Source: a virus. Taken from it: DNA of 64,000 nucleotides. The position numbers were made by a program, and so were the translations under genes. The notes under the pieces are model-generated. The model was not told where the DNA came from. It ran no database searches and saw only the letters and a program-made list of their open reading frames with translations. The stretch lies in the UHGV virus genome UHGV-1370141. One strand, written 5' to 3'. Of the stretch, positions 43,332 through 60,587 are shown one piece after another. The number at the start of each line of letters is the position of its first letter. Position 1 is the stretch's first letter.

Positions 43332-44498
43332 TTAACGACGTTTTTGACAATTAGGGCAGTTGCAACCTACGCCAGAAGATATTTCTCTAAAGTACGCGTC
43401 GAGTAAGTGCTCGTTATTATTAAGAAAACGAACTGACCACAAGTCACGCAGATGAGTTTTTAACTTTCCAATAATACCGGGTTCATAGTTGAGTAGAATG
43501 GTAAGTGCGTTGTCTGTGTAAGTCCACTGACGGACTTTCTCAGGAAACCAACGAGTGATATCACGCATAAACGTATCGGCATCTTCTTTCCCAATAGCAG
43601 TGATTGTCAGAAGACGTAGACGGTTGTTAACAAACTCATCAATGAGACTATGAATTTCTTCTTCAAAAGCAATGTTCCACCATTTCCATTTAAAGGTGAG
43701 TTTTTCGCCCTCGAGTTTGGTCTCTACCTTGGTAGAATAGAATGCTGTCAAAGTGTCATTAATCGCTTCGGCATCTGGACCAGTGTATGTAAAGGCTTTC
43801 AACACATCGGACTCTTCACGCGGTTGCTCCCCTTCTTCGAGTTGGTTAAGAAAAATTTTCTTTGTTAACTTACGCATACAGATGTTCAATTGATTAATAA
43901 CAACAGGGTCATTATCAACAATCACTGTTAAAGTATCGCCAACATAATTAGACTGGCGAATTTTCTCCTTGTGTTCGTGAACAACTATACGCATGAATTC
44001 GTCCGCTTCACCTTTTCCGATACCTTGAAACGAAATAAGACGAACGGTGTCGTTATCGATCATCTCAGCGACAGAACGTACTTCTTCCATGAGGTTACGA
44101 TCGTCTTTCTTCAATCGAACGACGAGTTTGCTGTTATCCCAGTAAATGCCTAAATCGTCGGGATAGAAGGTCTCTAACGCCTCTTTAATATCCTTAATCT
44201 TTTCGCCTTCGTACCAGAGGACGTGCGGTTCGTCTTTCTGCTGCTCTTCGACTTTCGGTTGTTCAGTCTCGGCCGTTTCTACCGGGTTGAGCAACTCACC
44301 GATTTCCACCGCGATAGTGTCGCAAAGATAATCGTTGCAGTGAGTCCAGTAGAACACGATGCTTTCATCATTGACCTGCTCTACGCGGAAATGTACACCT
44401 TTATCCAGGAATATACGATAAAGTTGATCGAGTAACTGTGCTTCAGGAACCGGACGGATTTCGGTTTTAACGAGCGGTGTAATCTCGATATTATACAT
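43332..44498 (-). CDS. Hypothetical protein with internally repeated domain and C-terminal CxCPxC
   Basis: Two similar segments (...GKGEADEFMR... / ...GKEDADTFMR...) also related to 48200..49042; ends GVGCNCPNCQKRR. Confidence 0.55.
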   Translation of the reverse strand: MYNIEITPLVKTEIRPVPEAQLLDQLYRIFLDKGVHFRVEQVNDESIVFYWTHCNDYLCDTIAVEIGELLNPVETAETEQPKVEEQQKDEPHVLWYEGEKIKDIKEALETFYPDDLGIYWDNSKLVVRLKKDDRNLMEEVRSVAEMIDNDTVRLISFQGIGKGEADEFMRIVVHEHKEKIRQSNYVGDTLTVIVDNDPVVINQLNICMRKLTKKIFLNQLEEGEQPREESDVLKAFTYTGPDAEAINDTLTAFYSTKVETKLEGEKLTFKWKWWNIAFEEEIHSLIDEFVNNRLRLLTITAIGKEDADTFMRDITRWFPEKVRQWTYTDNALTILLNYEPGIIGKLKTHLRDLWSVRFLNNNEHLLDAYFREISSGVGCNCPNCQKRR

Positions 44499-44520
44499 GT
44501 CAATTTTCCTTTTTGGTAAA

Positions 44521-44952
44521 TTATTCGTAGTTGTGCTTAAGGAACTCTAAAGCACGTTGGTCATTGGTTAATGCTACTGCCGACATTTTCTTTAAGGCTT
44601 GACGACAGTAAGCGTCACTCACAATACGTTGTTGCCAAGCATTGACAATTTCCGTAACGGTTTCTCCTTCTACAGCCGTATTGAGTTTATCGATAAAGTG
44701 ACGTCCCATCAGATACGCAACTGCGTAGTCCGTGAACATCTCTGTACCGAAATCACCGTCTGGGTAGTCAGCACGTTTCCGCACTGACATATCGGTAACG
44801 ATTTGATACGACGACTTCACCACTTCGTGGAATTTTTCTACCGTTAAGGTGTTAAGGTCCATACCCGATAAAGAGAGTGAAGCCAGTACCGGAATACTGG
44901 CTGGGTATTTACGAATGTAATCACGCAACTCTAATTTCAGTTCTTTGCTCAT
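44521..44952 (-). CDS. Hypothetical protein, paralog of 42824..43255
   Basis: ATG at 44952 with GGTGAG RBS (track GTG 44964). Confidence 0.5.
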   Translation of the reverse strand: MSKELKLELRDYIRKYPASIPVLASLSLSGMDLNTLTVEKFHEVVKSSYQIVTDMSVRKRADYPDGDFGTEMFTDYAVAYLMGRHFIDKLNTAVEGETVTEIVNAWQQRIVSDAYCRQALKKMSAVALTNDQRALEFLKHNYE

Positions 44953-44957
44953 TGAAC

Positions 44958-45431
44958 TCACCACTTATATTCAAACAAATAGCTGGAGAAAACATCGGCG
45001 AAATTTTCTAAATCATCGGTGTCAATCAAATCCAATCCTTTATTCAGAGATCCTAGCCATGTACCGTCGTAGCAAACTGCCATTACAGAATGGCGAACTT
45101 TTAGTTTACCGTCATTAGTAAATGAACGTTCACCGTTCTCGCCCGCCTCGTAGCGTTCCCCATTGTCAGCCAAGATAACCAGTTTGTCTAACGGGATGAA
45201 AGCGTCCATTACAACAAAGTCATAACGTGCAGTGACATGATTGTCGGTTACAGTTAAACGTTCAATAATGTAAAGGTTTGAATCACGTTTCAGCTCTTTG
45301 CTTTTTCTCCATCCATTCTTAATCAGCGAAAAAGCATCGCTTCTGCCAGTAAACAGATCTTTAATTTTATAGGTTTTTTCTACTGAATGGAAAGCGGCAT
45401 GAACGTTGCTGTTGATTTCTAAGCTAAACAT
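44958..45431 (-). CDS. Hypothetical protein
   Basis: 157-aa ORF. Confidence 0.55.
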   Translation of the reverse strand: MFSLEINSNVHAAFHSVEKTYKIKDLFTGRSDAFSLIKNGWRKSKELKRDSNLYIIERLTVTDNHVTARYDFVVMDAFIPLDKLVILADNGERYEAGENGERSFTNDGKLKVRHSVMAVCYDGTWLGSLNKGLDLIDTDDLENFADVFSSYLFEYKW

Positions 45432-45479
45432 ATTCTATTCCTTATATACAAGTCGAAGAGTTAATGTGTTAATTTTCGT

Positions 45480-45974
45480 TTAGAGATGTTTTTCGATAAC
45501 TTCCGAAACTAATTCGTAAAGGTCATCGTCGCTGCACACTTCTACACTAATTCCGATATCGATACTACGACTACGGAACCCAACTTTGAGCGATTTACCG
45601 AACTCGGTTTGAAAGGCTTTATAGAGGATGTTCTTATCTTCTTCTGTGAGGCGAACAGGTAGTCTAACGGTGAACTTGTAATGTTCTTTCGAAACAAGTT
45701 CGTTGGAATAATTGAGTCGTTTGGCTCCACGCGTTCCGACAATCTGTGTTACCAGCTTAAACATTTCCTCGTCGGTATACGCTGTTGCGCTATAACCGAT
45801 ATCGATAGTGTTTCTGCGGAAACCTGCGCAGAACAAAGCACCGAACTGTTCACGGAATTCTTTGTACAGGACGTCTTTTTCTACGTCCAGTAATCCGTAA
45901 CCCAAGTCAACAGTAAATTTGTATTTTTCTTTGTCAACCAATTCATTAGTGTAATCAAGTCTAGTGAAGTTCAT
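45480..45974 (-). CDS. Hypothetical protein made of two tandem ~80-aa repeats
   Basis: LDYTNELVDKEKYKFTVDL...FRRNTIDIGYS vs LNYSNELVSKEHYKFTVRL...FRSRSIDIGIS. Confidence 0.55.
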   Translation of the reverse strand: MNFTRLDYTNELVDKEKYKFTVDLGYGLLDVEKDVLYKEFREQFGALFCAGFRRNTIDIGYSATAYTDEEMFKLVTQIVGTRGAKRLNYSNELVSKEHYKFTVRLPVRLTEEDKNILYKAFQTEFGKSLKVGFRSRSIDIGISVEVCSDDDLYELVSEVIEKHL

Positions 45975-46019
45975 GGTATATGCTCCTAAAATGGTTTTAG
46001 TTAAGTGAGAGCTTTCGTA

Positions 46020-46045
46020 CTCTCACCTAAGTAATATATATCTGA
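46020..46045 (-). promoter_or_regulatory. Conserved 26-bp promoter-like motif, copy 3 of 4
   Basis: Minus strand TCAGATATATATTACTTAGGTGAGAG about 50 nt upstream of 45480..45974. Confidence 0.4.
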
Positions 46046-46056
46046 AAATATTTTAA

Positions 46057-46338
46057 TTAAAACCCAGCAATAAAACTGCCTAATGAAAGACGCTGTAAGT
46101 ATTTTGGCTTACGTGCCAGGTAACAGTTCTTAGGATTACCTATCGCCATCTGTGCAACCGCACGTTCTAAACGCGGTGCTTCTAAGATAGCACGATAGTT
46201 CCCTTCGTAATGCATTAACCATGCACACTCTTCAACAAAACGTTTTGCTTCTCGGTATTCTAACGTACGAATACGTTTCTTACCACGATACAAAACCACA
46301 TCACCATTACTACGAAATACAACCGTTTCACGATTCAT
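46057..46338 (-). CDS. Hypothetical protein
   Basis: Track gives GTG at 46395; internal ATG at 46338 reduces overlap; start uncertain. Confidence 0.4.
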   Translation of the reverse strand: MNRETVVFRSNGDVVLYRGKKRIRTLEYREAKRFVEECAWLMHYEGNYRAILEAPRLERAVAQMAIGNPKNCYLARKPKYLQRLSLGSFIAGF

Positions 46339-46624
46339 TGATTTTACCCCATAATTCTCGCCGTAAAACTTGTTTATACATATCGACCTGAGCACGACAA
46401 TCTTTTGTGGCCTTCTCTAGTATTAAAAAACCAGCTTCTTTTGGCAATTTCTCCTCGCAAATGTACTCGGTAATAGCACAAAGCTTGTAATAAAGCTCTA
46501 GCTGTTCCCTGAGCGATTTTTCCTGCACTTTAATTAATTCATCTTGCTTAGCAATAACCTTTTCATTAACTTCGCAGACAGGACATTTCTTACGTTTAAA
46601 TAGCCGAATTAGTTTAAAAACCAT
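46328..46624 (-). CDS. Hypothetical protein (CPVC motif)
   Basis: ATG at 46624 with GGTGG RBS (track TTG 46642). Confidence 0.45.
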   Translation of the reverse strand: MVFKLIRLFKRKKCPVCEVNEKVIAKQDELIKVQEKSLREQLELYYKLCAITEYICEEKLPKEAGFLILEKATKDCRAQVDMYKQVLRRELWGKINES

Positions 46625-46922
46625 TATCGCCACCGTTTGCAATCCAGGTTGCTACACGAACGTGTGCACTGTGAAAGTTAGAGACTAAGAGTATTACACC
46701 ACCTAACGTACGTGGAACGCGTAAGGCTTCGAAACGACGACAGTAAGAACGTACACAATACTCAGAACCTAAGATAACGATTTCGCAGTATTCTGAACGA
46801 ATCGGCAGTAGTTGAGAAACGAGTTTATCACACGTTTCTTTGTTGTCTTCTAATAACCCGCCACTGAGAATATAGTTGACGATGTTCTCAGGTGCCGATG
46901 TGTTTGCGATTTTATTTTCCAT
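46614..46922 (-). CDS. Hypothetical protein
   Basis: 102 aa; AGGAG RBS. Confidence 0.5.
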   Translation of the reverse strand: MENKIANTSAPENIVNYILSGGLLEDNKETCDKLVSQLLPIRSEYCEIVILGSEYCVRSYCRRFEALRVPRTLGGVILLVSNFHSAHVRVATWIANGGDNGF

Positions 46923-46924
46923 CG

Positions 46925-47314
46925 TTAAACTCCTATAGTGATCTCCGTGATGTGCATTCTTCGCATCTCACGAGTCATTCTGTCTATTGCCCGTTGACAT
47001 TCGAATAAATTGTCGTAGTATTTCTGGGCAGTAACGTTGAATATAATCCGACCTTCTTTCAATTGTTTAGCAACGACTTTTGTAGTTTCCGATTCAAACA
47101 GCAGACCACCTTCCCTGCCAATCTTAACTAAAACGTCACGAATAGCAACGTTTATAAGCTCGCCATTTGGGGAAACCACGATTTCCGTATACCAGTCGCC
47201 CTCACTAACGATACGTTGTACCCTTTCACCGCATAGCCAGTTTTTGACTTTCCCATTGACGAATAATTGGGCCTTTAGTAACAAACGTCTTTTTAAGTAA
47301 GATAAACGCATCAT
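46925..47314 (-). CDS. Hypothetical protein
   Basis: ATG at 47314 with AAGGTG RBS (track GTG 47323). Confidence 0.5.
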   Translation of the reverse strand: MMRLSYLKRRLLLKAQLFVNGKVKNWLCGERVQRIVSEGDWYTEIVVSPNGELINVAIRDVLVKIGREGGLLFESETTKVVAKQLKEGRIIFNVTAQKYYDNLFECQRAIDRMTREMRRMHITEITIGV

Positions 47315-47357
47315 GCAAATCACCTTATCTCCCTCGGGAAAACCGAGGGAGTGCTAA

Positions 47358-47639
47358 TCACAGTTTCTCTTCTATTGTATCGATTCGAACTAACGCATCG
47401 TGACTGACTTTACGTGCGTGTCCAATCGTACTACCTAAAGCTTTTGTTGTTGGGTCTAAGGTATTCAGACGGTGATACTGATAATCGATATCTCGTATAC
47501 AACGCGCCTGTTGTTTTACCATCCGAATTAATTGTCGTTTGGTCTGACGATTGTTACTAAGTTCCTGTCGTAATCGCGTGTTTTCTTTATAAAGCTCCTG
47601 TTGACGTGTGTTAATTAAACCCAACAACCAATCTAACAT
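47358..47639 (-). CDS. Hypothetical coiled-coil protein
   Basis: 93 aa; GGGGGT RBS. Confidence 0.5.
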   Translation of the reverse strand: MLDWLLGLINTRQQELYKENTRLRQELSNNRQTKRQLIRMVKQQARCIRDIDYQYHRLNTLDPTTKALGSTIGHARKVSHDALVRIDTIEEKL

Positions 47640-47641
47640 TT

Positions 47642-48157
47642 TTACCCCCTGTGCAAGAAAATGCGGTTAGTGTTTTCGAATTTCGGTTCTGTCCACTCTA
47701 GTTCCCAGTAAGCCTGGTTAATATCGCGAGACGTGAGTTTCAAATTCGAAACACCGGGGATATCGATCTGTTGCAGTAAATTAATAATCGTCACCAGCTC
47801 TTTACGAGGACGGTTCCAGATAACTTCAAGATACTCTTTCAGACGTTCTGGGTAAGCAACGGGGCGAATATAGACTAGCCCAGAAGGATACTCAATTGCT
47901 GAGGGTGTTCTTGGCACTAACCAAACCCAGTCTTTTAATAGCGGTCCTGGGTGATAATTCGAGAGTTGGGTAAGCGCGTTCGCGACGGAACAACAGCGAA
48001 AATACATGATGTCCCAGTCTTTTTCGAAACAATTACGTGCGACCAGGACCTTTAGCTTATCGATAGGTTTACCGTCAATCGTAGTAACACCTGGCTGATT
48101 AGCCAAGATTTGACGTTCACGTTTGGTATAAAGATTCATGTTGATTGTTACAGACAT
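47642..48157 (-). CDS. Hypothetical protein
   Basis: 171 aa; AAGGAG RBS. Confidence 0.55.
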   Translation of the reverse strand: MSVTINMNLYTKRERQILANQPGVTTIDGKPIDKLKVLVARNCFEKDWDIMYFRCCSVANALTQLSNYHPGPLLKDWVWLVPRTPSAIEYPSGLVYIRPVAYPERLKEYLEVIWNRPRKELVTIINLLQQIDIPGVSNLKLTSRDINQAYWELEWTEPKFENTNRIFLHRG

Positions 48158-48199
48158 TTAATGCTCCTTTAGGTAAATAGTGGGGTAATTAAGCCTTCG

Positions 48200-49042
48200 T
48201 TATTTAAGATTCCGAACTTCTCTCATCTCGTTACAAAATCTATCAAACAGCTGGGCGTATTCGCCAACGTGAGCTTCTAGCTGTCCAAAAAAGTGGCGTG
48301 AAAGTCGTTCGCTGATTTCTTTTTCGTATTTCTTGAGAACGTGTTTAAAATATTCACCGTCTCTCTTAATTTTCTGCGCAAGGGGTTCCAGAACTTTAAG
48401 AACCCATGGTTTGTTTGGGATCAAGAGATTCAGGTTACCTTCAAGATATTTGCTTTGATAAATTATAAATAGATGGTGTTCGTGTTCATCTTTCACTGCG
48501 CGAATAAACTCGGCAGCATCGGCCTCGCTAATATCCTCAACTGTAAATAGCAGAATATTTTCTTTCTCTATGTCATTCAATAGGTTATTTAAAAAAGCGC
48601 GATAAGTAGCACCTTCATAGTTCACTTTAAGCACGTTGTTTTCAACCAGATAAGTGAATTTGTCGTTGTAAAAAAGGTATAATATCGAACCGATTTTACC
48701 TGCCTGTTTGGGGGTAAGTGGAATCTCGTCTGTGAAGTAAGCGACGTCTTTCGCAGTTGGCTTGTCTTTTAGCCTACAAGTCATTTGATCCGGAATTTCT
48801 GGATCTTTAGGCGTCTCAACAGCCCGTACTAAAATATCCATAACCGCACTAATGAGCTTGTTAGGGAAATCGACCTCGCCTTCTACCCAGAAAATGTTAA
48901 ACGCTTCTGATTTAACTTTATAGTAAAACGTGTATGTGTTTTGTAGCTCAGTGATTTCTTTAATTTGATCCTCAGTAGGGATAGGGGAAATTTTAAACTT
49001 GTTGATAACCTTTTCTTCTTCGGTGAGTTCGAACTGAAACAT
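48200..49042 (-). CDS. Hypothetical protein (domain shared with 43332..44498)
   Basis: 280 aa; AAGGAGG RBS; EADAAEFIRAVKDEHEHHL segment. Confidence 0.55.
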   Translation of the reverse strand: MFQFELTEEEKVINKFKISPIPTEDQIKEITELQNTYTFYYKVKSEAFNIFWVEGEVDFPNKLISAVMDILVRAVETPKDPEIPDQMTCRLKDKPTAKDVAYFTDEIPLTPKQAGKIGSILYLFYNDKFTYLVENNVLKVNYEGATYRAFLNNLLNDIEKENILLFTVEDISEADAAEFIRAVKDEHEHHLFIIYQSKYLEGNLNLLIPNKPWVLKVLEPLAQKIKRDGEYFKHVLKKYEKEISERLSRHFFGQLEAHVGEYAQLFDRFCNEMREVRNLK

Positions 49043-49053
49043 GCTACTCCTCC

Positions 49054-49497
49054 TTAAATCATTGCTGGGAATTCGAAATCAATCTTATTTACGATCCCGT
49101 AATCTTCTTTTAGTTGAATGTTTAATGTTCCCTGAAATAACTCAAGAGAACCGATGAAGAACGCTGTGTAGCAGTTTCCACGAACAGAAAAGGCAAGATC
49201 CAATCCCCTTAAACAGCGTTTTAAGGTATCGTGTTCTTCTTTACTACCGAACAACTGGAAATTGATAACGGTAATCTGTTTGTTAATGATTGCCATTAAC
49301 CAATTTTTAATTCTTTTCGTGGTTATACTCTCTTTAAAATCGTTAGCTTCTGGTAGCCAACTAACGTGAACAAACGGAGCGGCATAATCCACGCGAACCT
49401 TTTGCTGCCAACGTACTTGCATCAAACCACGAATACGATTTGCTAACGTTTCAGAATCACAAAGTAGCATAATGCCATTAGTAGTATTTGGTTTCAT
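49054..49497 (-). CDS. Hypothetical protein
   Basis: 147 aa; AAGGAAGGA RBS. Confidence 0.55.
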   Translation of the reverse strand: MKPNTTNGIMLLCDSETLANRIRGLMQVRWQQKVRVDYAAPFVHVSWLPEANDFKESITTKRIKNWLMAIINKQITVINFQLFGSKEEHDTLKRCLRGLDLAFSVRGNCYTAFFIGSLELFQGTLNIQLKEDYGIVNKIDFEFPAMI

Positions 49498-49563
49498 AAT
49501 TGTCCTTCCTTCTTAATGTACTCTTCAACTCAGCTATAACTAGTGGAGTGAACGTAATTTTCA

Positions 49564-49589
49564 CTCTCCCCTAGGTAATATATATCTGA
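49564..49589 (-). promoter_or_regulatory. Conserved 26-bp promoter-like motif, copy 4 of 4
   Basis: Minus strand TCAGATATATATTACCTAGGGGAGAG about 65 nt upstream of 49054..49497. Confidence 0.4.
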
Positions 49590-49636
49590 GAAAAAATAAA
49601 AAAGGTAGTAGGGGCTAAGCCCCTACTACCTAAAAT

Positions 49637-50257
49637 TTATTTCATTCCGTTCTGAGAAAGTGTTGTCCCTGCAAGATGCTTAATAACGATCTTGACAGGC
49701 AAATTACTATTCTCGTACTGTACTTCGGTTTCAGACAAATCGGTGATATCGACAACTTTAGAAGGTACTTTCGCTAAGACAACCCGAATGGTGTGGGTTA
49801 TCGTACTGGCTGTGGTCTTTGTATTACTAATGTAGAAGTACGCATCAATAATACCGCCGTCTTCTGCCAGATAAACCAATTTATTTTCCAACAGACACTG
49901 GGTATAAATTGACACTCCAGATAATTGCGAAATCCCCAGTCTATTATTAACGTCAACTGTTGTTTTGCAGATTACCGCACCACCTGTCAACGTTTTTTCT
50001 ACCACCATATTTCCCGATAAGGTTTTTGCATCCATTTTTGGTACAATCGGATGAGTGCCGTCAACAAACAACCCATCGCTGTTAGACTTAAGGATGTTAT
50101 TCGCCGACGGACTCACTGTAACCTCGCCACCCCCTAATTTCTCAATCGGGAGTTGGTATTCAGTTTGTTCCTTAGACGCTAAGACTACTACACCCGTGAT
50201 GTCTTCTGAAAGTGTCTCCAGTTCATGAATGCGCACCTTTCCTACCAGTTCAGCCAT
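49637..50257 (-). CDS. Short receptor-binding / fiber protein with conserved N-terminal anchor domain
   Basis: N-terminus MAELVGKVRIHELETLSEDITGVVVLASKEQTEYQLPIEKL matches N-termini of 52032..56513 and 59597..60058. Confidence 0.55.
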   Translation of the reverse strand: MAELVGKVRIHELETLSEDITGVVVLASKEQTEYQLPIEKLGGGEVTVSPSANNILKSNSDGLFVDGTHPIVPKMDAKTLSGNMVVEKTLTGGAVICKTTVDVNNRLGISQLSGVSIYTQCLLENKLVYLAEDGGIIDAYFYISNTKTTASTITHTIRVVLAKVPSKVVDITDLSETEVQYENSNLPVKIVIKHLAGTTLSQNGMK

Positions 50258-50772
50258 TAGTGGCCTCCGAATGTTAAGACACGGTTATCTGCGGTAACGA
50301 TTAAATCGTTGTCTTTTACTACAGCGGCTTCTTCATCGTTACCGAAAACCAGAACGGAGAATTGGCCTTTATAACCTAACGAGTTGGGTGAAACCTGTAA
50401 CGTTACAGCGTCTTTCCCTACGGTAAATGATTCGTCGGTAAGATCGTCGGGTTGTAAATTACAACCACAAGCCGCGTTAATTCCGTCGATTAGATCGTGT
50501 GCGGTAAAGCCATTACCGGAAACCTTTACCAGAATAGGTTGCTGGTTTAACCACCGCTCTGCGGTTAAACGGTTGTAATAAATCTGTAACGTTCTGTTGT
50601 CCGGACGTTTTATCTTTACAACAGCAGTGGTGTCACGATCCATTTCGTTACTGGTCTTTACGTCGCTGACTTCAACCTCGTTCTCTTGCAGGTCGAGCTG
50701 GAGGTCATGGTTAACCAGTGAAATAACCATGTTAAGTGAAGTTAACGACAAATCTGGCGTGAATTGTTCCAC
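50257..50772 (-). CDS. Hypothetical protein, paralog of 60024..60587
   Basis: GTG start with GGAGGT RBS; N-terminus FTPDLSLTSLNMVISLVNHD vs YVPDLSLTSAELVVALINHD; TAATG overlap with downstream gene. Confidence 0.55.
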   Translation of the reverse strand: MEQFTPDLSLTSLNMVISLVNHDLQLDLQENEVEVSDVKTSNEMDRDTTAVVKIKRPDNRTLQIYYNRLTAERWLNQQPILVKVSGNGFTAHDLIDGINAACGCNLQPDDLTDESFTVGKDAVTLQVSPNSLGYKGQFSVLVFGNDEEAAVVKDNDLIVTADNRVLTFGGH

Positions 50773-50870: not shown

Positions 50871-51377
50871 TTAACTGATTTTGAAATCTCTTAACGTACC
50901 AGTTGATCTCATCACGTTTTGAAAAGCAGTGCTGATGTTATTAGTCCAGTAGTAATGCTGTCCGTTAATAACCTGCTGATAGGTCAGTGCGCAAGTGTTA
51001 CCGCCTAGATTTACAGTGATGTTAGAGGCCCTGCCGCCTTGTAAGTAAACCGCTAAACTAGGCCTTGCGTTGCCAACTACCGTCGTTAACTGTAATTCGA
51101 TACCTACTAAAGTTCCCACCCCGCAGTTACCCGCGTTTTGAATGGTCCCCTGATTTTTCTGGTTTAACGGCCAATTTGGTCCTACTGCGCCCCATTTCTT
51201 ACCTAAAGAATCTCTATATGCGGCAGTTGCAATTTTACAGCCCATAGATCTTCCCACCATTTGACTCATCATAAAAGGTCTACTCAATCCTAATTTACTA
51301 CCCGCAGCGCTCATCCACTGTTCGCCCGTTTCATTCCTAGCTGAAGATCCGACCCATCCTGACGCTACCCCCCCCAT
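50871..51377 (-). CDS. Putative fiber-tip adhesin-like protein (paralog of 51394..52032 N-terminus)
   Basis: AAGGAGGG RBS; N-terminal GWVGSSARNETGEQWMSAA shared with neighbour; G8 run spans the start codon (ATGGGGGGGG). Confidence 0.5.
   Translation of the reverse strand: MGGVASGWVGSSARNETGEQWMSAAGSKLGLSRPFMMSQMVGRSMGCKIATAAYRDSLGKKWGAVGPNWPLNQKNQGTIQNAGNCGVGTLVGIELQLTTVVGNARPSLAVYLQGGRASNITVNLGGNTCALTYQQVINGQHYYWTNNISTAFQNVMRSTGTLRDFKIS
51368..51375. repeat. G8/C8 homopolymer overlapping the start codon of 50871..51377
   Basis: Plus strand C8 at 51368-51375 = minus-strand ATG-GGG-GGG-G. Confidence 0.8.
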
Positions 51378-51393
51378 CTACCCTCCTTTTTAA

Positions 51394-52032
51394 TTAAACA
51401 CGTGAACCGTATATTGCACCTACTGCGTCCCATCTTGGCGCATTACCAGTAACAGCTTTACCAGCTGCTCCGCCGTTATATTCTGTACCGTTACCATGAG
51501 TATTACATCTTCCTCCAGCAGCACCGACATTACCACCCGAACCGCCTGTATATGCACTAAGAGACCCCTCACCAACAGATCCTCTACCAGGAGCGGAAAT
51601 AGTACCAGCAGCTGCACCGGAACTCATATGAGAGGAAGACCCACCAGCACCGCCTGGCGAGTTAGAACCACCGTTGCCTCCTCTGCCGTATACTGTAACC
51701 CCAGGATTGATGATGAGTGTAATATACGAATTTGGAAGATTGCTAGGGAATTCTAAACAAGGAACCCCGCTACTATAAGACACTAAATCCCCTGTAATGG
51801 TCACAACGACAGCAGTAGAGCCTAAAGAACGTAAATAGTTAATAAGAGTATCCTTATTATAGCTATGGTTAGCACCAATAGAATAATGGACCTCTTTTGA
51901 TTTTCCCGCCAATTGCGACATCCAGCCTGGAACCGGCACACCAAGTGTGCGCATCGCGCCAGACATCCATTCGTTACCAGCTTCAGCTTTTGCTGAAGAA
52001 CCAATCCAACCACCTACGCCGACAACTGCCAC
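51394..52032 (-). CDS. Glycine-rich adhesin-like protein (gp38-type architecture), putative
   Basis: GTG start coupled to fiber stop; conserved N-terminal domain then Gly-rich tracts (GRGGNGGSNSPGGAGG..., TGGSGGNVGAAGG). Confidence 0.5.
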   Translation of the reverse strand: MAVVGVGGWIGSSAKAEAGNEWMSGAMRTLGVPVPGWMSQLAGKSKEVHYSIGANHSYNKDTLINYLRSLGSTAVVVTITGDLVSYSSGVPCLEFPSNLPNSYITLIINPGVTVYGRGGNGGSNSPGGAGGSSSHMSSGAAAGTISAPGRGSVGEGSLSAYTGGSGGNVGAAGGRCNTHGNGTEYNGGAAGKAVTGNAPRWDAVGAIYGSRV

Positions 52033-55000
52033 TAGGATCTCCCTTTGATTTCGTTAACCTCTTGACGCAACGCTTTCATACCCTCTACTAACAGCGCAAT
52101 AACGCCATTGTAGTTTAGACGTAAACGTTTTTCGCCTGAAATGGCATCATCATCCTCAGACACAAGTTCAGGTAACGCTTCTAATGCGTCTTGAGCAATT
52201 AGACCTACAGAAGTTTGCCAACCGTCATCCGGATGCTGAATTTCGTACAAATAACCAGTTAGTAACTCTAACCGATCCAAAGCCTTATCCAGCTTCACCA
52301 GATTACGTTTGTTACGACGGTCAGAACGAATCTGTACGTCGTTAAACGAACCGTTACCGCTGCCAGTAACGTTATGACCAAAGGTTACTTGGCCATTAGC
52401 GTTATTAAAATACAACGGACGTAGTCCGTTCCAGGAACCCGTTGCAGCTTGTCCGGCGTCGGTTACTAAGAAATAGGTATTGGCACCATCGTTACGTAAC
52501 ATAAAGCCGTAGTTGCCGTAAGCGATTCGAAAATCAGGGTACTTAGTGACCAATTTACCGTTAACGGTTAAATCGCCACCTATAGTACCGCCCCCTGACG
52601 GTAACGCACCGATGTCACCAGCGTTAGGTTTGTTGTGTGTGCTGTAAATCAGATAGACGGTACCGTCTGTTAGTCCTGCGGGTTTATTAGCCGTATAGCT
52701 TGGCGATGTGTGAATCGTTACGTTGGCATTACTAGTGTAGTCCCACTGAATATTAACACCGGTGGCGTAATTACCTATTTCAACATAAATATCGTAAGTG
52801 TCACCAGATGTATTCACCCATGCAAAATTAGTGAAGCCGACTGAGGTCAGTCGCCATAACGCACCAGTAATACCTTTTGGATTCCCATTTCCTGCACGCA
52901 GAACCAGCTCAGAGATACCTGCTTGATGCGGGGAACCAACGTTAAACCCTGCACCACCAATCAGGCTTATGTAAACCACGGAACTGGCTTGTGGCATCGT
53001 TACAGTTGCTAGTTTGAACCATCCGGCACCACCATTAAAAGACACAGTTGTTGTGTTCGCGGCACCAACATTTCGTAAGAATTTTCTCTTATCTGGAATA
53101 TCGGCACCGTTCTGTTTCTTCTGCAATGACCCACCGGCCAATTCTACAGTTTGGCCAAGATTTAAACTTTCAGCCGTTATTTCGATGTTTTTAGTGCCGT
53201 CAAACGCAATACCGTTGATGGTTCTTGCAGTTTGCAACTTTGTTGCAGTGGCCGCGTTTCCGGTGGTCGACTGATTACCCGTTTGGTTTACTCCAGGAAG
53301 ATTAACGTCTTTCGTCCCATCGAAAACCACACCACCGATCCTACGTCCTGTTTGTAACTTGGTAGCGGTTGCTGCATTACCTGTCGTATTCTGGTTGCCT
53401 TGCTGGTTAACCCCCGGTAAATTGATATCCCCAGTACCGTCAAAGGTAACGCCGCCGATTCTGCGAGCGGTTTTCAGTTTCGTCGCGGTAGCGGCGTTGC
53501 CGGTAGTATCTTGATTACCTGTGGTATTTACGCCAGGAATACTGTCACGGGCAGTATAAACTTGTGCCCAATCTGACCACGGCGCATCTGCCGTATCACG
53601 TCGACTACGAATATAAACTGGCGCGTGCGCACCACTCGTGCCCGACCAACCAATTAACAACTCGCCTTCGCCTAGCGCAGCAGAACCACCCAAATGCAGT
53701 AAGTTACCATAAGCGGTCGGATAACCGTTATTGTAAACTTCGTACATCTGAATACCAGGCGTACCTTTGTTTGAACCAGTCAGTGCAGTAACACGTCCAC
53801 GTCCTACCAACGTGTTGATATTGATGTCTCTAGACCCATCAAATTTCACACCGTTGATGTTTCGAGCCGTTTGTAATTTGGTTGCGGTTCCCGCGTTCCC
53901 AGAGGTGTTTTGATTACCTTGTTGGTTAACACCTGGGAGGTTAACGTCGCCGCTACCGTCGAAGGCGACCCCACCAATTCTACGTGCCGTCTTTAATTTA
54001 GTGGCGGTTGAAGCATTGCCTGTTAACTCACCTGCTAACCCTTTTGCAAAGGTCTGTTTTTCTGCCCAGGTGTGCGCTGCGTTCAATACAGGCATCTGGC
54101 GTGGCGTAATTGTTCGACTACCTTTCTCACCAGCGATACGAACAGCAAAGAAGCGATAGTTGGCAGTAGACACCGTACTACGCCAAACCAACATGCTCCG
54201 ACCGGTGCCGGTGTCATCAGACGGCCCTACAAGGATGTTAACTAAGTTACCGTCAATCACACCCCAATCCATTCCCGCAGGAATATTTTTCATGGTGTTC
54301 AACGGTGACGTTAACATCTGACCGGGAACGAAGTCGTAGGTTTGCCAGTCTAACGGGTCAACCTTAGCAGCTACACCACCAATGCCTAAAACTAACGGAA
54401 GTGAATACGAGGTGAAAACCTCTCGCCACCCACTCCAAATGTTACCCGTACGGATACGTTGGAATTTACGACCTTTAGTTTCTCTACCCGTGCCGTATGT
54501 GGTATAATTCTGTTCGACCCCTGTACCGTCTAAGCGTAAGGTAACTTCACAAACGCCTACCACGGTTTCGCTAGAAGAACCGATAAGTGGACCGTTAGTT
54601 GCCTCACCAGTGACACTGAAACGACCCGGTTTAACGAGATCGTTAAAATTGGCTTTAAAGAAAGCACCGTCAGTCTGATAACCAACCTGAATCCAATCTT
54701 CCCATTGTGGGTTTGATGAATCCCACGTTGCAGTCAAACCACGGACATACATTGTGCCACGACGCGTAGTGTATCGCTGCAACCGTCCGAAAAGACCACC
54801 TTCCATTACTTCTAGTACGCCTTGCGCGTTACCGCCTTCTTCAGGGTAATGCCGGTCGAACACCGCTAACGAACTGGACGAGTTCCGCCAGTTACCCATA
54901 TGCTCAGCGCCACCCAGAGAGTTCAAGTCTATAGAGGTAGACAGTGGGCGAACACCAGTGGTTACCATTCTCCACGGTGACCAGGGTCCATTAGTTCCGT

Positions 55001-56513
55001 TCCACACACCTGACAACATACGGTTGTACACGTTACCATTACGACAGGTAAAACGTTGCGCGCCACTGTAGTTGCCCGCTTTATACACTTCCAGATAACC
55101 GACTGCACCGTCTTCTGGGAAGTGTTTTGCCATCGACGCATTGGTTGATGTCGACTTAGACCACGTTCCTGTGTAATTAGCATCTGGAGCAAATGTGTTA
55201 ATATCAGCATCTACAGGCATTTCGCCACGGAAACGCAGGTAGGTATCAGGAGATAGGCCGATGTTGCGAGCAAAAGTTTCTTTATCTGGGATATCAGCGC
55301 CGTTAGAGTTTTTCTGTAACGCACCATTCGCTTTATCGACGGTAGTTTTCAAACCCAGGAAGTTAATGATATCCGCCGTCGACCCTTTCGCTAACAAATC
55401 GCGCGCAGTCGAGGTGAAATCCGCTAATCCCACCCGATTACTACCGGTAAAGTAAGGGAGTTTGTTTGCAGCGGTGGTGACTGCGGCAATCGCTGTCAGT
55501 AACGGACTTAACGGCTGTTTACCCGCGAGTTGGTTCGTTATCGTTGTCGCAAAGTTAGGATCGTTTCCTAACGCGGCTGCAATTTCTGATAACGTATCTA
55601 ACGTCTCGGGTGAAGAGTCCACTAATTCAGCAATCGCTTGCCGTACCCATGCCGTCGTTGAGACTGTCGTGTCGTTAGAATCCGCAGCAGGAGTCGGAGC
55701 TTTTACTACGCCAGTAAACGTCGGCGAGTGACGGTTTGCTTTTAACTGCAAATCATCATTTAACTGCTTAACCGTTGACGGTGTAGCCGCTTCCGTAACC
55801 GAGTCACTGGTTAAGGTATTATTAAGTTTAACGATACCTTTACTGGACGTTGTTGCATCAACGTTACCTTTTGCAGCGATTTCCTCTGCACGCTTAGCGG
55901 CTGCCTCAGAACGCGTTGCCGCATTCTCTGCGGTTTCTTTGTCTGAGGTAACTTGCGTTGCTGTAGCCTCTACAGAGGCTTTTGACGACTCTACTGACGC
56001 GACAGCTTCGTTAACTGCCGTAAGCGACTGTTCTACTTGACCGGCTTGTGTGGCAACAGTTTCTGCTTTCTTCGTAACGGTAGTCACCGCTTGTGTGACG
56101 TTGGCCTCGCTTGCCGCTACCGCTTGTGCTTTCTCATTAACGGACACAACCTGGGTATCTACCGCCGTTTTCGCGGCTAACACTTCAGTGTGTTTTGTAC
56201 CGACCTCAGTTGCTTTTTCGGTTACAGTTTGCGCTTGTTGAGCAACCGTAGCCGCAACGGTGTCAGTTTGTTGTTTTGCTGTTTCTGCTAAATTCTTTGC
56301 TTGTGTAGCCTGAGTTGCAGCTTCTTGTGATTGTGTTGCTGCTGCTTGTGCATCAGACACCGCATTACGCACGGTGTCAATATCTGCAACGATCTCACGG
56401 ACTGGTAACTTATAATCTTTCTCATCTTTGGAGAAAAGTAAAACACCTTCACCGATATCCCCGGTGTATGGACGTAAGTCGTGTAAACGAATTTTCTTTA
56501 CCGCTTTAGCCAT
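52032..56513 (-). CDS. Long tail fiber (1493 aa) with N-terminal anchor, coiled-coil stalk, 40-aa repeats and C-terminal intramolecular chaperone (S74-like) domain
   Basis: Anchor MAKAVKKIRLHDLRPYTGDIGEGVLLFSKDEKDYKLPV; fiber motifs ATPSTVKQLNDDL and PTFTGVVKAP; repeats TGNAATATKL.TARRIGGV.FDGT.D.NLPGVNQ; C-terminal SDRRNKRNLVKLD...GLIAQDALEALPELV chaperone-like. Confidence 0.75.
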   Translation of the reverse strand: MAKAVKKIRLHDLRPYTGDIGEGVLLFSKDEKDYKLPVREIVADIDTVRNAVSDAQAAATQSQEAATQATQAKNLAETAKQQTDTVAATVAQQAQTVTEKATEVGTKHTEVLAAKTAVDTQVVSVNEKAQAVAASEANVTQAVTTVTKKAETVATQAGQVEQSLTAVNEAVASVESSKASVEATATQVTSDKETAENAATRSEAAAKRAEEIAAKGNVDATTSSKGIVKLNNTLTSDSVTEAATPSTVKQLNDDLQLKANRHSPTFTGVVKAPTPAADSNDTTVSTTAWVRQAIAELVDSSPETLDTLSEIAAALGNDPNFATTITNQLAGKQPLSPLLTAIAAVTTAANKLPYFTGSNRVGLADFTSTARDLLAKGSTADIINFLGLKTTVDKANGALQKNSNGADIPDKETFARNIGLSPDTYLRFRGEMPVDADINTFAPDANYTGTWSKSTSTNASMAKHFPEDGAVGYLEVYKAGNYSGAQRFTCRNGNVYNRMLSGVWNGTNGPWSPWRMVTTGVRPLSTSIDLNSLGGAEHMGNWRNSSSSLAVFDRHYPEEGGNAQGVLEVMEGGLFGRLQRYTTRRGTMYVRGLTATWDSSNPQWEDWIQVGYQTDGAFFKANFNDLVKPGRFSVTGEATNGPLIGSSSETVVGVCEVTLRLDGTGVEQNYTTYGTGRETKGRKFQRIRTGNIWSGWREVFTSYSLPLVLGIGGVAAKVDPLDWQTYDFVPGQMLTSPLNTMKNIPAGMDWGVIDGNLVNILVGPSDDTGTGRSMLVWRSTVSTANYRFFAVRIAGEKGSRTITPRQMPVLNAAHTWAEKQTFAKGLAGELTGNASTATKLKTARRIGGVAFDGSGDVNLPGVNQQGNQNTSGNAGTATKLQTARNINGVKFDGSRDININTLVGRGRVTALTGSNKGTPGIQMYEVYNNGYPTAYGNLLHLGGSAALGEGELLIGWSGTSGAHAPVYIRSRRDTADAPWSDWAQVYTARDSIPGVNTTGNQDTTGNAATATKLKTARRIGGVTFDGTGDINLPGVNQQGNQNTTGNAATATKLQTGRRIGGVVFDGTKDVNLPGVNQTGNQSTTGNAATATKLQTARTINGIAFDGTKNIEITAESLNLGQTVELAGGSLQKKQNGADIPDKRKFLRNVGAANTTTVSFNGGAGWFKLATVTMPQASSVVYISLIGGAGFNVGSPHQAGISELVLRAGNGNPKGITGALWRLTSVGFTNFAWVNTSGDTYDIYVEIGNYATGVNIQWDYTSNANVTIHTSPSYTANKPAGLTDGTVYLIYSTHNKPNAGDIGALPSGGGTIGGDLTVNGKLVTKYPDFRIAYGNYGFMLRNDGANTYFLVTDAGQAATGSWNGLRPLYFNNANGQVTFGHNVTGSGNGSFNDVQIRSDRRNKRNLVKLDKALDRLELLTGYLYEIQHPDDGWQTSVGLIAQDALEALPELVSEDDDAISGEKRLRLNYNGVIALLVEGMKALRQEVNEIKGRS
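53165..53560 (-). repeat. Three or more tandem 120-nt (40-aa) repeats inside the tail fiber gene
   Basis: Period 120 nt seen at 53211, 53331, 53451; diverged at DNA level. Confidence 0.6.
53810..54045 (-). repeat. Two further copies of the 40-aa fiber repeat
   Basis: Protein repeats ...GNASTATKLKTARRIGGVAFDGSGDVNLPGVNQQGNQ / ...GNAGTATKLQTARNINGVKFDGSRDININ. Confidence 0.5.
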
Positions 56514-56590: not shown

Positions 56591-59500
56591 TTATTGCTCC
56601 GGTTTTAATGGAACATCTTCTACCGTTAACGTAACGTCTAAGGCCGCTTGACTGTGGTCAGTAATCGCTAAGTCACGATAAATATTAGCATTGGCTCCGT
56701 AGGTTTTATAAGTAACGTAGAGACCTAACGCACGTAGCACTTCCCCAGTGTAGAACCCATAAGCCATTCCGTTATCAGAAGACTCTCGAGCGGCTGGAGA
56801 CCACGCTCCATTAATCGGCTTATTCGGAATTGAGGTAATCGTAAACCCTTCACCTAACTCCTTAATTGCCGCATTAACCACTTTATCGTAGTTCGGATTC
56901 GTTGCACCGGCGAGTAATGCCCAGCAACACCCTGCTAACCACAACCCACACATATGTGCGGTGAAGTCGTTTTCCACCCAAACAGCTTTATCCGGTGCTG
57001 TAGGGAACTCGTTAGGAGTGTGGCCATTAAACCGATCCACAAACCCACCTAGCCAATTCACCCAGTTGTCAATATAGCTTGTTAACGCCTCGGGAACGTC
57101 TTTACCTCGCAGTTTCAGTTCGTACCAACAGCGACATGCGGCATGAAACGCACGAGGCTGATACCCTGCCCAAGGATGGTCATCACCCCAATGGAACGTC
57201 GTCCAGGTATCCGCTTCTCCGTAGCTGTAGTTGTCCCAACGGTTCCAGATATAAGCTGCACAACCAGGTCCTAATTCCCCAATTTGCTGTTGGTAAGCCA
57301 ACTGCGAATCGTACAGGAATTGAATCTGGTTATCTAACCACAGCTTATACCGGTCGTCTTTGTGGATACTGTACATAAACGGATACTGATAACCCGGATA
57401 AGGCATCCCGTGCCAAGCACCTAACTGTTCCGAACCTTCTAAGTAGCTGTTCGTGAACGGTATCGTACCCGGACAGTACGCTAACGAATCCAATCGGTAA
57501 TCTACAATCGTACAATCACCCACTTTTGCATCAAACTCTGCACCACCGCGTAAGGCAATACGGAAGGTTAAAATATAACCATCGTCTTTATTAAAGACCG
57601 GTGGAACATCGTTAACACAATAGTAAGCAAAGTGCGCATGGTCAACCGTAGAGTCAGGAAGAATCGTGACCTGATCCACCTTATCGAAATTCGGTGCTGA
57701 AGGTTTAGGGTCAGCGTCTGTGTGGTCTGGCTGATAACCGGAAAGTGTGGCTTCATCTGGATTCAACGTTACCTGACGCCATTCGTTGTTTGTGTTGGGT
57801 AACATCCACCACCAACGCCAGTTATCACTGTCGACTAAACGCAAGTTAAAATCTGCGTCTGCACGGTAAACAATAGAAACGGGTTTTACCTTCTCTTCAG
57901 CGGTTAACCAAAACCCGATAATAAACCCGGCACTGTCATCAGGAAATTCAGCTTCTACCACGGTACCCGCGCGACCATCGTAAATGCTATCCTCAAAACG
58001 TTCTTCCCATGTACAACCACCATAGTCCGAACACGCACGGGCTTCAGCTATCAGGTAGTCTCCCCCTTCTGGGGTGGTAATACGGGAAAGTTGGCCTAAG
58101 TCAATATCGTACTGTTTAACGGTATTTACCGTAGACCGAGGTAAGGTTAAACCGTACCAGTTTACTTCCTCGGTATCAGCTTTCGCAGGGTTAATGTTCA
58201 CCATCGCTTTACAGTAGACAGGATCGCCATTCTTACAAACTCCACCGTACGTGACACGAAGTTTGGAGTCTTTGTTAATCCTGAATCGAACCGCTTGCTG
58301 CTCCATAAAGTGTTGTACCGCTTCAGGCGCATGGATGGTAATGTCTCCATTCTCATCACGGCCGTAGGTAACACTTACGGTGTCCGGGTAATTGAAGTCG
58401 TACGAAATGCCATCCGTAAACGGTGTTTCCGCAGCGGTAGAACGACGGAAGAATTTATCTACCGCATCAATATACGTGTACTCGTGTGCTGTGTAGAAAG
58501 CACAGTCTAACGCTTGTTTGTATTTCTCTTCACCTGTTATACGCCACAGCAAATAACAGGCGTCGATAAACCACAGTTCAGCATCAGCGGCGTTACCGTA
58601 TTGGTTTTTCGACCCTAAGAACGGTGTGTGGACCGGACGGTTGTGCCACGGCTCATTACGTTTAAATTCGTAACCGCCGTGTTCGACGGGAAGTTTTACC
58701 GCGTAGTTAATTAAATAGACACCGTTTAACTGTGTGTCTTTTAACTGTACGGTACCTTTATCAGCGTCTGCTAATCCCGTCTCAATAATTTCACTATCCT
58801 GGATTTTGTTACCCGTCCAGGCAATTATCCAGTCAACGTCGTATTTAGGAGCTTTTGTTGCAGACCCGCCCCAAAGCGGGGTGTAACCTGTAGCATTATT
58901 TAGCAGTGTTGGCCAATCGACCCAAGCGATGCTTTCGTAAGGCTTATCAGGATTAGTAATAACGTGAGTTAAAACGTCTTCCCAATTAATCGACCCTTCT
59001 TTGTCTTCCTTGATAATCTGTACATCTGCGTTAATCGCGGCCCAGGCAGGGTGGCCACGATGTGCAAACGTACAGATATCCAAATACTCTCCCCAGAAAG
59101 GTGCACCGTGCGGTATCTTACATTGGCCATTTGTAAACCTTACAGGAACACATTTATACCCGCCGTTGGTAGGTTCCGTAGGGTGAATAGGATAGTGTGC
59201 TAATACCGGTTCTTTCCCGTTTACTAACCAGTTACAAATCCGACGCTGGGGTGTTGTCGGAATAGGCTGTCCGGCGTAGAAGTACGTGTTGTACGCATCC
59301 CAGGCGTGTTTCGCAGCATCTAACCATCTTTCGTCTTTTGTTGCGATATACATGTGGCAATAACCGATAATGTGTAACGACTGACCCTCGGTCGTTGCGT
59401 CACCATTCGGTTGGTATTCCGCCATGGTATCAGCGATGAAATGACGGTTATTCGACAGAACACCTTCTTCGTTTTGAATATAGTGTTCGTTGTGCGCGTC

Positions 59501-59596
59501 GTGAGTCGTTCCCGTATTCCGGGTAACGAAGGATTGGTGTCCGTAAGCTAACGATAACGCGTAGCTAATCGCGTGACGCTGAAAATGTTTTCTCAT
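56591..59596 (-). CDS. Large Trp/Tyr-rich protein (1001 aa), candidate enzymatic (glycan-degrading?) receptor-binding module; in frame with upstream anchor ORF
   Basis: ATG immediately follows the TAA of 59597..60058 in the same frame; no RBS upstream; no recognised catalytic motif by eye. Confidence 0.5.
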   Translation of the reverse strand: MRKHFQRHAISYALSLAYGHQSFVTRNTGTTHDAHNEHYIQNEEGVLSNNRHFIADTMAEYQPNGDATTEGQSLHIIGYCHMYIATKDERWLDAAKHAWDAYNTYFYAGQPIPTTPQRRICNWLVNGKEPVLAHYPIHPTEPTNGGYKCVPVRFTNGQCKIPHGAPFWGEYLDICTFAHRGHPAWAAINADVQIIKEDKEGSINWEDVLTHVITNPDKPYESIAWVDWPTLLNNATGYTPLWGGSATKAPKYDVDWIIAWTGNKIQDSEIIETGLADADKGTVQLKDTQLNGVYLINYAVKLPVEHGGYEFKRNEPWHNRPVHTPFLGSKNQYGNAADAELWFIDACYLLWRITGEEKYKQALDCAFYTAHEYTYIDAVDKFFRRSTAAETPFTDGISYDFNYPDTVSVTYGRDENGDITIHAPEAVQHFMEQQAVRFRINKDSKLRVTYGGVCKNGDPVYCKAMVNINPAKADTEEVNWYGLTLPRSTVNTVKQYDIDLGQLSRITTPEGGDYLIAEARACSDYGGCTWEERFEDSIYDGRAGTVVEAEFPDDSAGFIIGFWLTAEEKVKPVSIVYRADADFNLRLVDSDNWRWWWMLPNTNNEWRQVTLNPDEATLSGYQPDHTDADPKPSAPNFDKVDQVTILPDSTVDHAHFAYYCVNDVPPVFNKDDGYILTFRIALRGGAEFDAKVGDCTIVDYRLDSLAYCPGTIPFTNSYLEGSEQLGAWHGMPYPGYQYPFMYSIHKDDRYKLWLDNQIQFLYDSQLAYQQQIGELGPGCAAYIWNRWDNYSYGEADTWTTFHWGDDHPWAGYQPRAFHAACRCWYELKLRGKDVPEALTSYIDNWVNWLGGFVDRFNGHTPNEFPTAPDKAVWVENDFTAHMCGLWLAGCCWALLAGATNPNYDKVVNAAIKELGEGFTITSIPNKPINGAWSPAARESSDNGMAYGFYTGEVLRALGLYVTYKTYGANANIYRDLAITDHSQAALDVTLTVEDVPLKPEQ

Positions 59597-60058
59597 TTAG
59601 TAACCCGCTGCAAGAAGAGAACCTTTCCAGGTGGCACCCCCATCAAGGGTATAAAGCGACAGAGTGTCTTCCGCATTTGCCGCGTAGGATAAAACCGGTT
59701 GTGCACCGTGAGGCCATTTAACGTTTTCAGGCCAGGTTACTTTATTCGCCCCTGTTCCTTGCTTAATCGTTAGCATTACTTCGAAACGGGTATTTTCTGC
59801 AACGTTGGTAAGGGCTGCGAACGTCACTGTAGTGTTAGGATCGTTTAACACCAGAATAATGTCAGTGCTGGTATTGAAATCCAACGTGGCGGCATTATTC
59901 GAACCGTTAACCGTGGTGACTGTCGCAACCGGGGCTAACTTATCAACATCAATTTTATATTCTTTATTGTCTTTGCTATACAGCAGTACCCCGCCTTGGG
60001 GTGTGCCTGCGTAGCTTTCGAGCTCATGGAGTCTCGTCTTCTTCAGTGCTGTCGCCAT
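59597..60058 (-). CDS. Anchor-domain protein (154 aa) with conserved receptor-binding-protein N-terminus
   Basis: ATG at 60058 with GAGG RBS (track start 60109); N-terminus MATALKKTRLHELESYAGTPQGGVLLYSKDNKEYKIDV. Confidence 0.55.
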   Translation of the reverse strand: MATALKKTRLHELESYAGTPQGGVLLYSKDNKEYKIDVDKLAPVATVTTVNGSNNAATLDFNTSTDIILVLNDPNTTVTFAALTNVAENTRFEVMLTIKQGTGANKVTWPENVKWPHGAQPVLSYAANAEDTLSLYTLDGGATWKGSLLAAGY

Positions 60059-60587
60059 CTGGAACCTCAAATGTAAGAACGGCATCGTCACCAATACAGA
60101 AGATTGCATCTTCTTCGTTTGCTAATGCCCGTTCGGTTGTATCAAACAACGTCACCATAAACGCGTTCATCCACGCAGGAGAATCGTCGGCAACGTTAAC
60201 GGAAATGGGATCGTTACCTAAAGTGATATCTGAAGCACGTAAATCCTCGGGTTGTAAGTTCGTTCCGCAGAATTCATTTACAACACTAAGAATGTCACGA
60301 ACGTTGTCTTCAGTACCGTCTAACGAAATCAGAATGGGTTCATACGTTAATACTTCATCTGCGTCGAGTCTGTCGTAGTAAACCACAACAGACGCGCCAT
60401 CCGGTTTTCTGATTTTACTGATTTCGGTAATGGTGTTACGACGCGAAGTTGTTGGGGATGGGTTTGTTACAGTTCCGCTAATACGGATTTCGTTTAGTGT
60501 AAGCTGTAACCCGTTATCATGATTGATTAAAGCGACCACTAGCTCTGCTGAGGTCAGACTCAAATCAGGTACGTATGGTGTGGCCAC
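60024..60587 (-). CDS. Hypothetical protein, paralog of 50257..50772
   Basis: GTG start with GGAGGG RBS; shared PDLSLTS N-terminus; acidic C-terminus. Confidence 0.55.
   Translation of the reverse strand: MATPYVPDLSLTSAELVVALINHDNGLQLTLNEIRISGTVTNPSPTTSRRNTITEISKIRKPDGASVVVYYDRLDADEVLTYEPILISLDGTEDNVRDILSVVNEFCGTNLQPEDLRASDITLGNDPISVNVADDSPAWMNAFMVTLFDTTERALANEEDAIFCIGDDAVLTFEVPDGDSTEEDETP

Follow-up and report, generated by a model that had tools for sequence, protein, structure and literature searches.

We examined two adjoining minus-strand open reading frames (ORFs) in a 64,000-nucleotide (nt) stretch of the virus genome UHGV-1370141, which we call the window: a small ORF of 153 amino acids (aa) plus stop at positions 59597-60058, and a large ORF of 1001 aa plus stop at 56591-59596. 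Both are read in the same frame, with a single TAA codon between them. We found that these are two genuine genes, conserved as a pair and each with its own domain make-up, and that the first gene normally ends at the TAA, which makes the junction an ordinary finding. The pair probably forms a conserved module in which the small protein is an adaptor that holds a separately encoded, glycosidase-like tail protein, the translation of the two probably being coupled. Read-through of the TAA, a nonsense mutation and a sequencing error are effectively excluded as explanations. The source phage is an SPN3US-like jumbo phage, and its best matches in the phage collection are about 72% identical, none of them being close.

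A first-pass annotation of this DNA had interpreted the locus as one receptor-binding gene split by a TAA, for which it offered a nonsense mutation or sequencing error, programmed read-through or suppression, or a genuinely two-piece receptor-binding protein. Its description of the sequence was correct. The small ORF begins with an ATG at 60058, preceded by GAGG 6 nt upstream, its coding span runs from 60058 to 59600, and it ends as ...GCG GGT TAC TAA, with the TAA at 59599-59597; the ATG at 59596-59594 is the very next triplet and opens the 1001-codon ORF that ends at 56591. The hypothetical read-through product would be 1155 aa long, while the 1156 given in that annotation is a number of codons that counts both stops. 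With a spacer of 0 nt the two genes share a frame by definition, and the shared frame appears to be an accident of that spacer. The abutment TAAATG is itself no more than chance and is unremarkable for this genome, given that 9 of the 14 consecutive minus-strand junctions from 63691 to 49637, as read off the ORF list, fall between -14 and +2 nt.

At least nine assemblies of close relatives, independent of one another and drawn from ENA, Logan and NCBI, show the same arrangement of a 153-aa and an approximately 1001-aa gene; their small proteins are 97, 84, 69 and 68% identical to that of the window. The junction reads TAC TAA ATG in the 97% group (three assemblies) and TAC TAG ATG in the 84% group (three assemblies), both in frame, so that in the latter the stop codon has changed yet is still a stop. 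The 68% group (two assemblies) carries a 2-nt spacer, TAC TAA CG ATG, which places the genes out of frame, and the 69% relative (one assembly, L018) carries three stops in the small-gene frame, TAA TGA TGA, with the large gene in frame +1. This last assembly was used for frame and stop information only, its large-gene start being ambiguous: the region 4416-4480 of the contig (Logan ERR14141103) holds no junction ATG in the large gene's own frame, and either the gene begins within the small gene, at an ATG 47 nt upstream, or the assembly contains a 1-nt indel in an A6T3 run. SPN3US, Proteus phage 7, SPAsTU and pEa_SNUABM_29 have the in-frame junction TAA NNN ATG, while Asesino (TGA G ATG) and JN03 (a 19-nt overlap) are out of frame. 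Of the six junction types in the SPN3US-like clade, two are in frame, as many as chance would give.

The two-gene state extends well beyond this clade. Searching phage records with tblastn recovered the small protein in 523 and the large protein in 539, with the same taxon distribution (small/large records: Escherichia 240/242, Salmonella 99/101, Vibrio 61/62, Erwinia 33/33). We compiled a census of 106 loci, comprising annotated phage regions, metagenome loci, 80 IMG/VR loci and the window. Both genes are present in 92 of these, and the comparison of orthologous loci that the first-pass annotation had proposed as a way of finding a fused gene gave two ORFs in all 92, with the small-gene stop kept as TAA, TAG or TGA in every case. 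The genes are in frame in only 14 of the 92, all of the SPN3US and window types, and out of frame in the other 78. Among the junctions, overlaps reach 47 nt and spacers +13 nt, and between these extremes lie ATGA and TAATG, the single type seen most often. Stop-start adjacency is strict across jumbo, rV5-like, phi92-like, FelixO1-like, Rosemountvirus and T7-like phages. Two large protein searches recovered no fused small-plus-large protein. The idea that a single tailspike gene was broken by a recent nonsense mutation, or by a sequencing or assembly error, has only the in-frame abutment in its favour, and it is contradicted by the recurrence of the arrangement in independent assemblies of close relatives, by the replacement of TAA with TAG in one lineage, and by the census together with the missing fusions. 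On this comparative sequence evidence the explanation is already refuted, and we give it practically no credence.

Published virion proteomics of SPN3US, in which the orthologous genes are also in frame, are informative about the protein products. In the analysis by gel electrophoresis and liquid chromatography-mass spectrometry, the peak of gp124 (113.7 kDa) lay in gel slice 9 (39 unique peptides, 48% coverage) and that of gp123 (16.5 kDa) in slice 1, the slice of lowest mass (5 unique peptides, 32% coverage), and neither carries a head-protein flag (Ali et al. 2017, PMC5694885, Supplementary Table 1). The main text of that study is silent on gp123 and gp124, both of which are listed in the supplementary table. 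The DUF7941 protein gp122 was undetected in the virions. These data indicate that the SPN3US orthologues are separate virion polypeptides although their genes are in frame; a fused polypeptide, for which the first-pass annotation had suggested virion mass spectrometry, is not seen for the SPN3US orthologues, on which this point was assessed.

We weighed these observations against read-through or suppression of the TAA, programmed or tolerated, which would yield a functional 1155-aa anchor-enzyme fusion beside the separate products. The explanation draws on the common frame and zero spacer, on the weak Shine-Dalgarno (SD) signal before the second ATG, on the likewise in-frame SPN3US-type relatives, and on P2-like contigs in which the large protein is covalently fused to another anchor, so that an N-terminal extension is evidently tolerated. 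Nevertheless, the junction fails on every feature of the read-through class that was tested. An in-frame downstream ORF is not maintained in related genomes, the 68-69% sister lineages being out of frame, as are 78 of the 92 family loci, and the in-frame share of SPN3US-like junction types being that of chance. One close relative carries three tandem in-frame stops. The stop reads UAA-A, or UAG-A in one relative, and of the bacterial stop codons UAA leaks least. Folding of the junction RNA revealed no structure beyond that of shuffled controls (z 0.2), and a tRNA scan of the window returned zero tRNA genes, so that no suppressor tRNA lies within it. Moreover, the large gene has a start of its own, with the ATG and an N-terminal MRK/MSK motif conserved across relatives, and the peptides of SPN3US gp123 peak far from the slice of gp124. 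As a conserved mechanism, read-through is largely refuted already, and for the window we regard it as very unlikely. The first-pass annotation had also stated what would speak against a split gene, namely related phages consistently carrying two separate genes with a ribosome-binding site before the second, and proteomics showing only separate products. The two genes are indeed consistent and the SPN3US products separate; as for the ribosome-binding site, most relatives have a clear one and the window a weak one. Thus, among the possibilities that the annotation raised, a genuinely two-piece receptor-binding protein is the only one to survive, supported by the comparative evidence and by the SPN3US proteomics.

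The domain make-up of the small protein is consistent with an adaptor. Its N-terminal anchor (approximately aa 1-45; 59924-60058) is shared with other proteins of the window, as had been proposed: in BLASTP and phmmer searches, aa 1-50 match the N-terminus of a 1493-aa fibre ORF at 52032-56513 with 52% identity (E 2e-10), and aa 1-42 match a 206-aa ORF at 49637-50257 with 40% identity (E 3e-6). In the AlphaFold2 (AF2) model this common anchor, residues 1-44, is disordered or unmodelled, with a low-confidence predicted local distance difference test (pLDDT) score below 50 in the monomer model, while residues 45-153 form a confident beta-sandwich (pLDDT 80-90). The C-terminal beta-sandwich (aa 46-153; 59600-59923), our proposed docking domain, carries the invariant motif KQGTGANKVTWP..VKWP..PVLSY. 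The protein is 46% identical to its orthologue SPN3US gp123, belongs to phrog_9017 ('tail fiber protein') and has an orthologue in Phi92 gp140, the family being labelled 'Phi92_gp140' in several records. At 153 aa, with its domain at the C-terminus, it lacks a distal receptor-binding or enzymatic domain, and from sequence similarity it bears a putative virion-attachment module at its N-terminus.

A profile search with the small domain against 1.84 billion representatives retrieved 11,117 clusters. The domain ends at most 10 residues from the C-terminus in 135 of the 150 top representatives (median 2 residues), and the large domain occurs in none of the 150. Given this C-terminal position, the two ORFs in 92 of 92 loci and the lack of fusions in the protein searches, the stop after ...GY reads as the native end of the small-protein family. 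Across lineages the C-terminal sandwich is conserved, while the N-terminal portion differs between virion types: it is Phage_T7_tail (Pfam, above threshold) in the T7-like phages ISAO8 and VpaP_G1, and a Tail_spike_N (TSP1/gp66) domain in FV3. In ISAO8 and VpaP_G1 the gene pair lies between the internal core genes and the holin/terminase genes, and the annotated region shows no further fibre gene; from T7-like genome order, we take this place to be the gp17 tail-fibre position. We also observed that four giant proteins, P0132 (2036 aa), P0133 (1415 aa), P0134 (1389 aa) and P0185 (1705 aa), contain 3-5 tandem or internal copies of the small beta-sandwich; these could be multi-branch hubs for several appendages. 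Sequence and profile searches of the PDB with the small and the large protein gave no real match (a hit to RagA at E about 0.03 is noise), and a search of NCBIfam found nothing; the family is without a solved structure.

The large protein is 71% identical to its orthologue SPN3US gp124 and belongs to phrog_2871 ('tail protein'). Its AF2 model (pLDDT 91) is a GH8/GH105/GH76-like (alpha/alpha)6 barrel, the toroid fold of glycoside hydrolases of the GH8, GH76, GH88 and GH105 kind, with two beta-sandwich insertions of approximate boundaries: a beta-rich one at about aa 120-330 (58607-59239), taken from the modelled secondary structure, and a jelly-roll/carbohydrate-binding module (CBM)-like one at about aa 398-700 (57497-58405). 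In the model the N-terminal helix, residues 2-26, is part of the barrel, and the N-terminus would be buried. Membership of a CAZy or Pfam family was not found, the Pfam GH76 profile scoring 18.3 bits against a cutoff of 25.9 and over residues 49-109 only. A Foldseek comparison of the model with the PDB gave partial CBM/jelly-roll matches with low template-modelling scores and no whole-length relative. Many D, E, W and Y columns are invariant in the alignment of the family, the acidic residues D66, E70, D338, D377 and D380 among them. We found no anchor similarity in the large protein, and the small domain is in none of the 120 homologues listed; judged from the model, the second protein would therefore be an enzymatic or receptor-binding body with no anchor of its own. 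We propose that it binds or cleaves a host surface glycan. The depolymerase Dpo42 is described in its paper as a 747-aa beta-rich protein and is unrelated. One homologue of the large protein, P0119 (1161 aa), has at its C-terminus the Pfam domain Gp77 ('Podophage GP4 fiber-tail adaptor'), and this sequence feature suggests that in some phages the large protein may itself be an attachment platform.

By analogy with anchor-branch and adapter systems, the adaptor would fix the enzyme-like protein non-covalently to the periphery of the baseplate. A different view is that the genes are separate and their products form no complex, the small protein being an independent short baseplate appendage or cap and the large protein attaching in some other way, so that the pair reflects synteny and co-expression only. 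The buried N-terminus of the large protein in the modelled barrel would fit this view, as would family size, the 11,117 small-domain clusters looking far more numerous than the large-protein family, of which a sequence search found at least 316 members; the small domain may thus partner with other proteins or with none. Set against this are the strict overlap or abutment of the genes in unrelated virion types, from jumbo to T7-like phages, and their near-equal record counts in the phage collection. In the T7-like region, moreover, there is no other fibre gene, so the large protein would need the Phage_T7_tail domain of the small protein to reach the tail, and in P2-like contigs a fusion to gpI puts the large protein at a fibre-anchoring site. 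On balance we consider it unlikely that the two proteins form no complex, and prefer the reading in which the small protein is the adaptor of the large one.

With respect to translation, ribosomes that terminate on the small gene would probably reinitiate on the large gene, the abutting ATG (59594-59596) being the proposed site of termination-reinitiation coupling. A stop codon overlapping the next start or within a few nucleotides of it is conserved, the junctions of relatives being TAATG, ATGA, overlaps of 8 to 20 nt or spacers of +1 to +3 nt. The first-pass annotation had seen no recognisable SD sequence before the large gene, which is roughly right, although a weak GGGU does exist at -10 to -7 (GGGT at 59603-59606, in the last codons of the small gene) with -4.1 kcal/mol. 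This value is equalled or undercut in strength by 27% of 60 window genes and attained by 17% of random 20-mers. The relatives carry AGGAG at the matching position within the last codons of the small gene, with -6 to -11 kcal/mol. The weak SD alone points to a dependence of downstream on upstream translation, and the TAAATG abutment together with the weak SD suggests that translation of the large gene may depend on termination of the small one.

The surroundings of the pair were also surveyed. Upstream, a 187-aa DUF7941 gene (60024-60587, minus strand), orthologous to SPN3US gp122, overlaps the small-gene start by 35 nt at its 3' end. A cassette of a DUF7941/phrog_2935 gene and an anchor-bearing protein occurs twice in the window on the minus strand, at 59597-60587, where the 187-aa ORF precedes the 153-aa adaptor, and at 49637-50772, where a paralogous 171-aa ORF (50257-50772) precedes the 206-aa ORF with a 1-nt overlap. 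The anchor may dock to the DUF7941 proteins, or these may act as assembly factors for it. A three-gene module with DUF7941 as a universal member was considered and rejected, since this gene lies upstream in SPN3US-like loci only. Downstream of the large gene, the minus-strand block 50871-56513 contains the 1493-aa long tail fibre, with Phage_fiber_2 repeats, Gp34_trimer and a C-terminal S74 intramolecular chaperone, followed by two adhesin- or assembly-like ORFs of 212 aa (phrog_2056) and 168 aa (phrog_1121). Given that the fibre varies from 1385 to 1540 aa in close relatives and that SPN3US is without this block downstream of gp124, the block looks like a swappable host-range cassette.

Further away, three consecutive giant paralogous ORFs (1441, 1394 and 1727 aa; plus strand, 15986-29785) have phrog_7449, phrog_7557, phrog_8078 and phrog_2163 in common and resemble, by size alone, SPN3US gp168-170 (paralogue family C, 'baseplate/tail fiber candidate'). 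Tandem ORFs of 130-280 aa form long minus-strand runs at 5379-12948 and 39387-50257, which in appearance are similar to the head-protein paralogue family B that Ali et al. 2017 described in SPN3US. A jumbo-phage relative (L019; GCA_031875345.1, CP134655.1, 114.5 kb) was deposited as a replicon of an Enterobacter ludwigii assembly, which points tentatively to Enterobacter as the host and suggests that the phage either was carried by the isolate or was assembled along with it.

These results caution against annotating the conserved pair as a pseudogene, a tailspike with a frameshift or a case of recoding. The pair was already annotated and verified by mass spectrometry in SPN3US, while we found no publication that reads the small protein of this family as an adaptor. 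More than 500 sequenced phages, whose architectures differ widely, carry this module of a proposed adaptor and an (alpha/alpha)6 glycosidase-like protein, which merits structural and host-range studies, although it overturns nothing known. A broader proposal, which we put forward as possible but doubtful, is that a universal small adaptor domain (>11,000 clusters) plugs a glycosidase of monomer-type (alpha/alpha)6 fold, and not a trimeric beta-helix spike, onto jumbo, rV5, phi92, FelixO1 and T7-like tails as a widespread host-recognition device, to which the in-frame lineages (the SPN3US type and the window) might add a rare read-through product as a covalently tethered minor isoform.

Comparison with known systems suggests that the pair belongs among two-component tail appendages. 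The resemblance to the A1 read-through protein of Qbeta is one of formal geometry only, an in-frame ORF after a stop; unlike A1, the large gene has a conserved ATG of its own, the frame is not conserved, the UAA or UAG is without a stimulatory structure, and the orthologues are separate products. In P2-like contigs the same large protein is covalently joined to a virion anchor, being fused to a complete Tail_P2_I (gpI) wedge domain directly after V-W-J (P0092, 1097 aa, at 5001-8294 of contig L025, ENA ERZ1755730; also in L050, L051, L053, L055-L060 and L062), and the fusion apparently replaces separate gpI and fibre proteins. It is the sole fused architecture found, and it differs from the window in that the gpI anchor is unrelated to the small-protein family and that no small gene is present.

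The adapter systems of other phages offer a closer analogy in layout. These include gp37 of K1-5, SP6 and K1E, KP34virus group A and KP32virus group D, in which the first receptor-binding protein (RBP) is short ('first RBP truncated'), G7C gp66-gp63.1, and the TSP4/TSP2 hubs of CBA120 (Latka et al. 2019, PMC6872550). As in these systems, a short first protein consisting of an attachment module and a small beta-sandwich is followed by a separate enzyme-type protein without an anchor, and the T7 gp17 N-terminal domain of the KP34 and K1-5 adapters is also found on the podovirus members of the present family. The differences are that the distal protein is a trimeric beta-helix there and of a monomer-type (alpha/alpha)6 fold here, and that in the present module the candidate branching domain has only a weak likeness to gp10, a free N-terminal docking peptide is not evident, and the two genes lie side by side.

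The same two families, in the same order and with stop-start overlaps, mostly TAATG, make up Phi92 gp140 and its downstream gene, rV5 gp43/gp42, phiEa21-4 gp71/gp72 (FelixO1-like), birk gp69/gp68 (Rosemountvirus), the PBECO4 pair and gp38/gp39 of the T7-like ISAO8; these differ from the window pair in having other small-protein N-termini and in being out of frame throughout. Phi92 gp140 is an unplaced fibre candidate in a 2026 cryo-EM study of phi92. Finally, SPN3US gp123 and gp124 (JN641803, SPN3US_0123/0124; named 'tail fiber protein' and 'tail protein' in RefSeq) are direct orthologues of the window pair, with the same gene order of DUF7941, small and large gene, an in-frame TAA, and both products in the virion. 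The window differs in its spacer, of 0 nt compared with 3 nt (one codon) in SPN3US, and in carrying the 1493-aa fibre and accessory genes directly downstream of the large gene.

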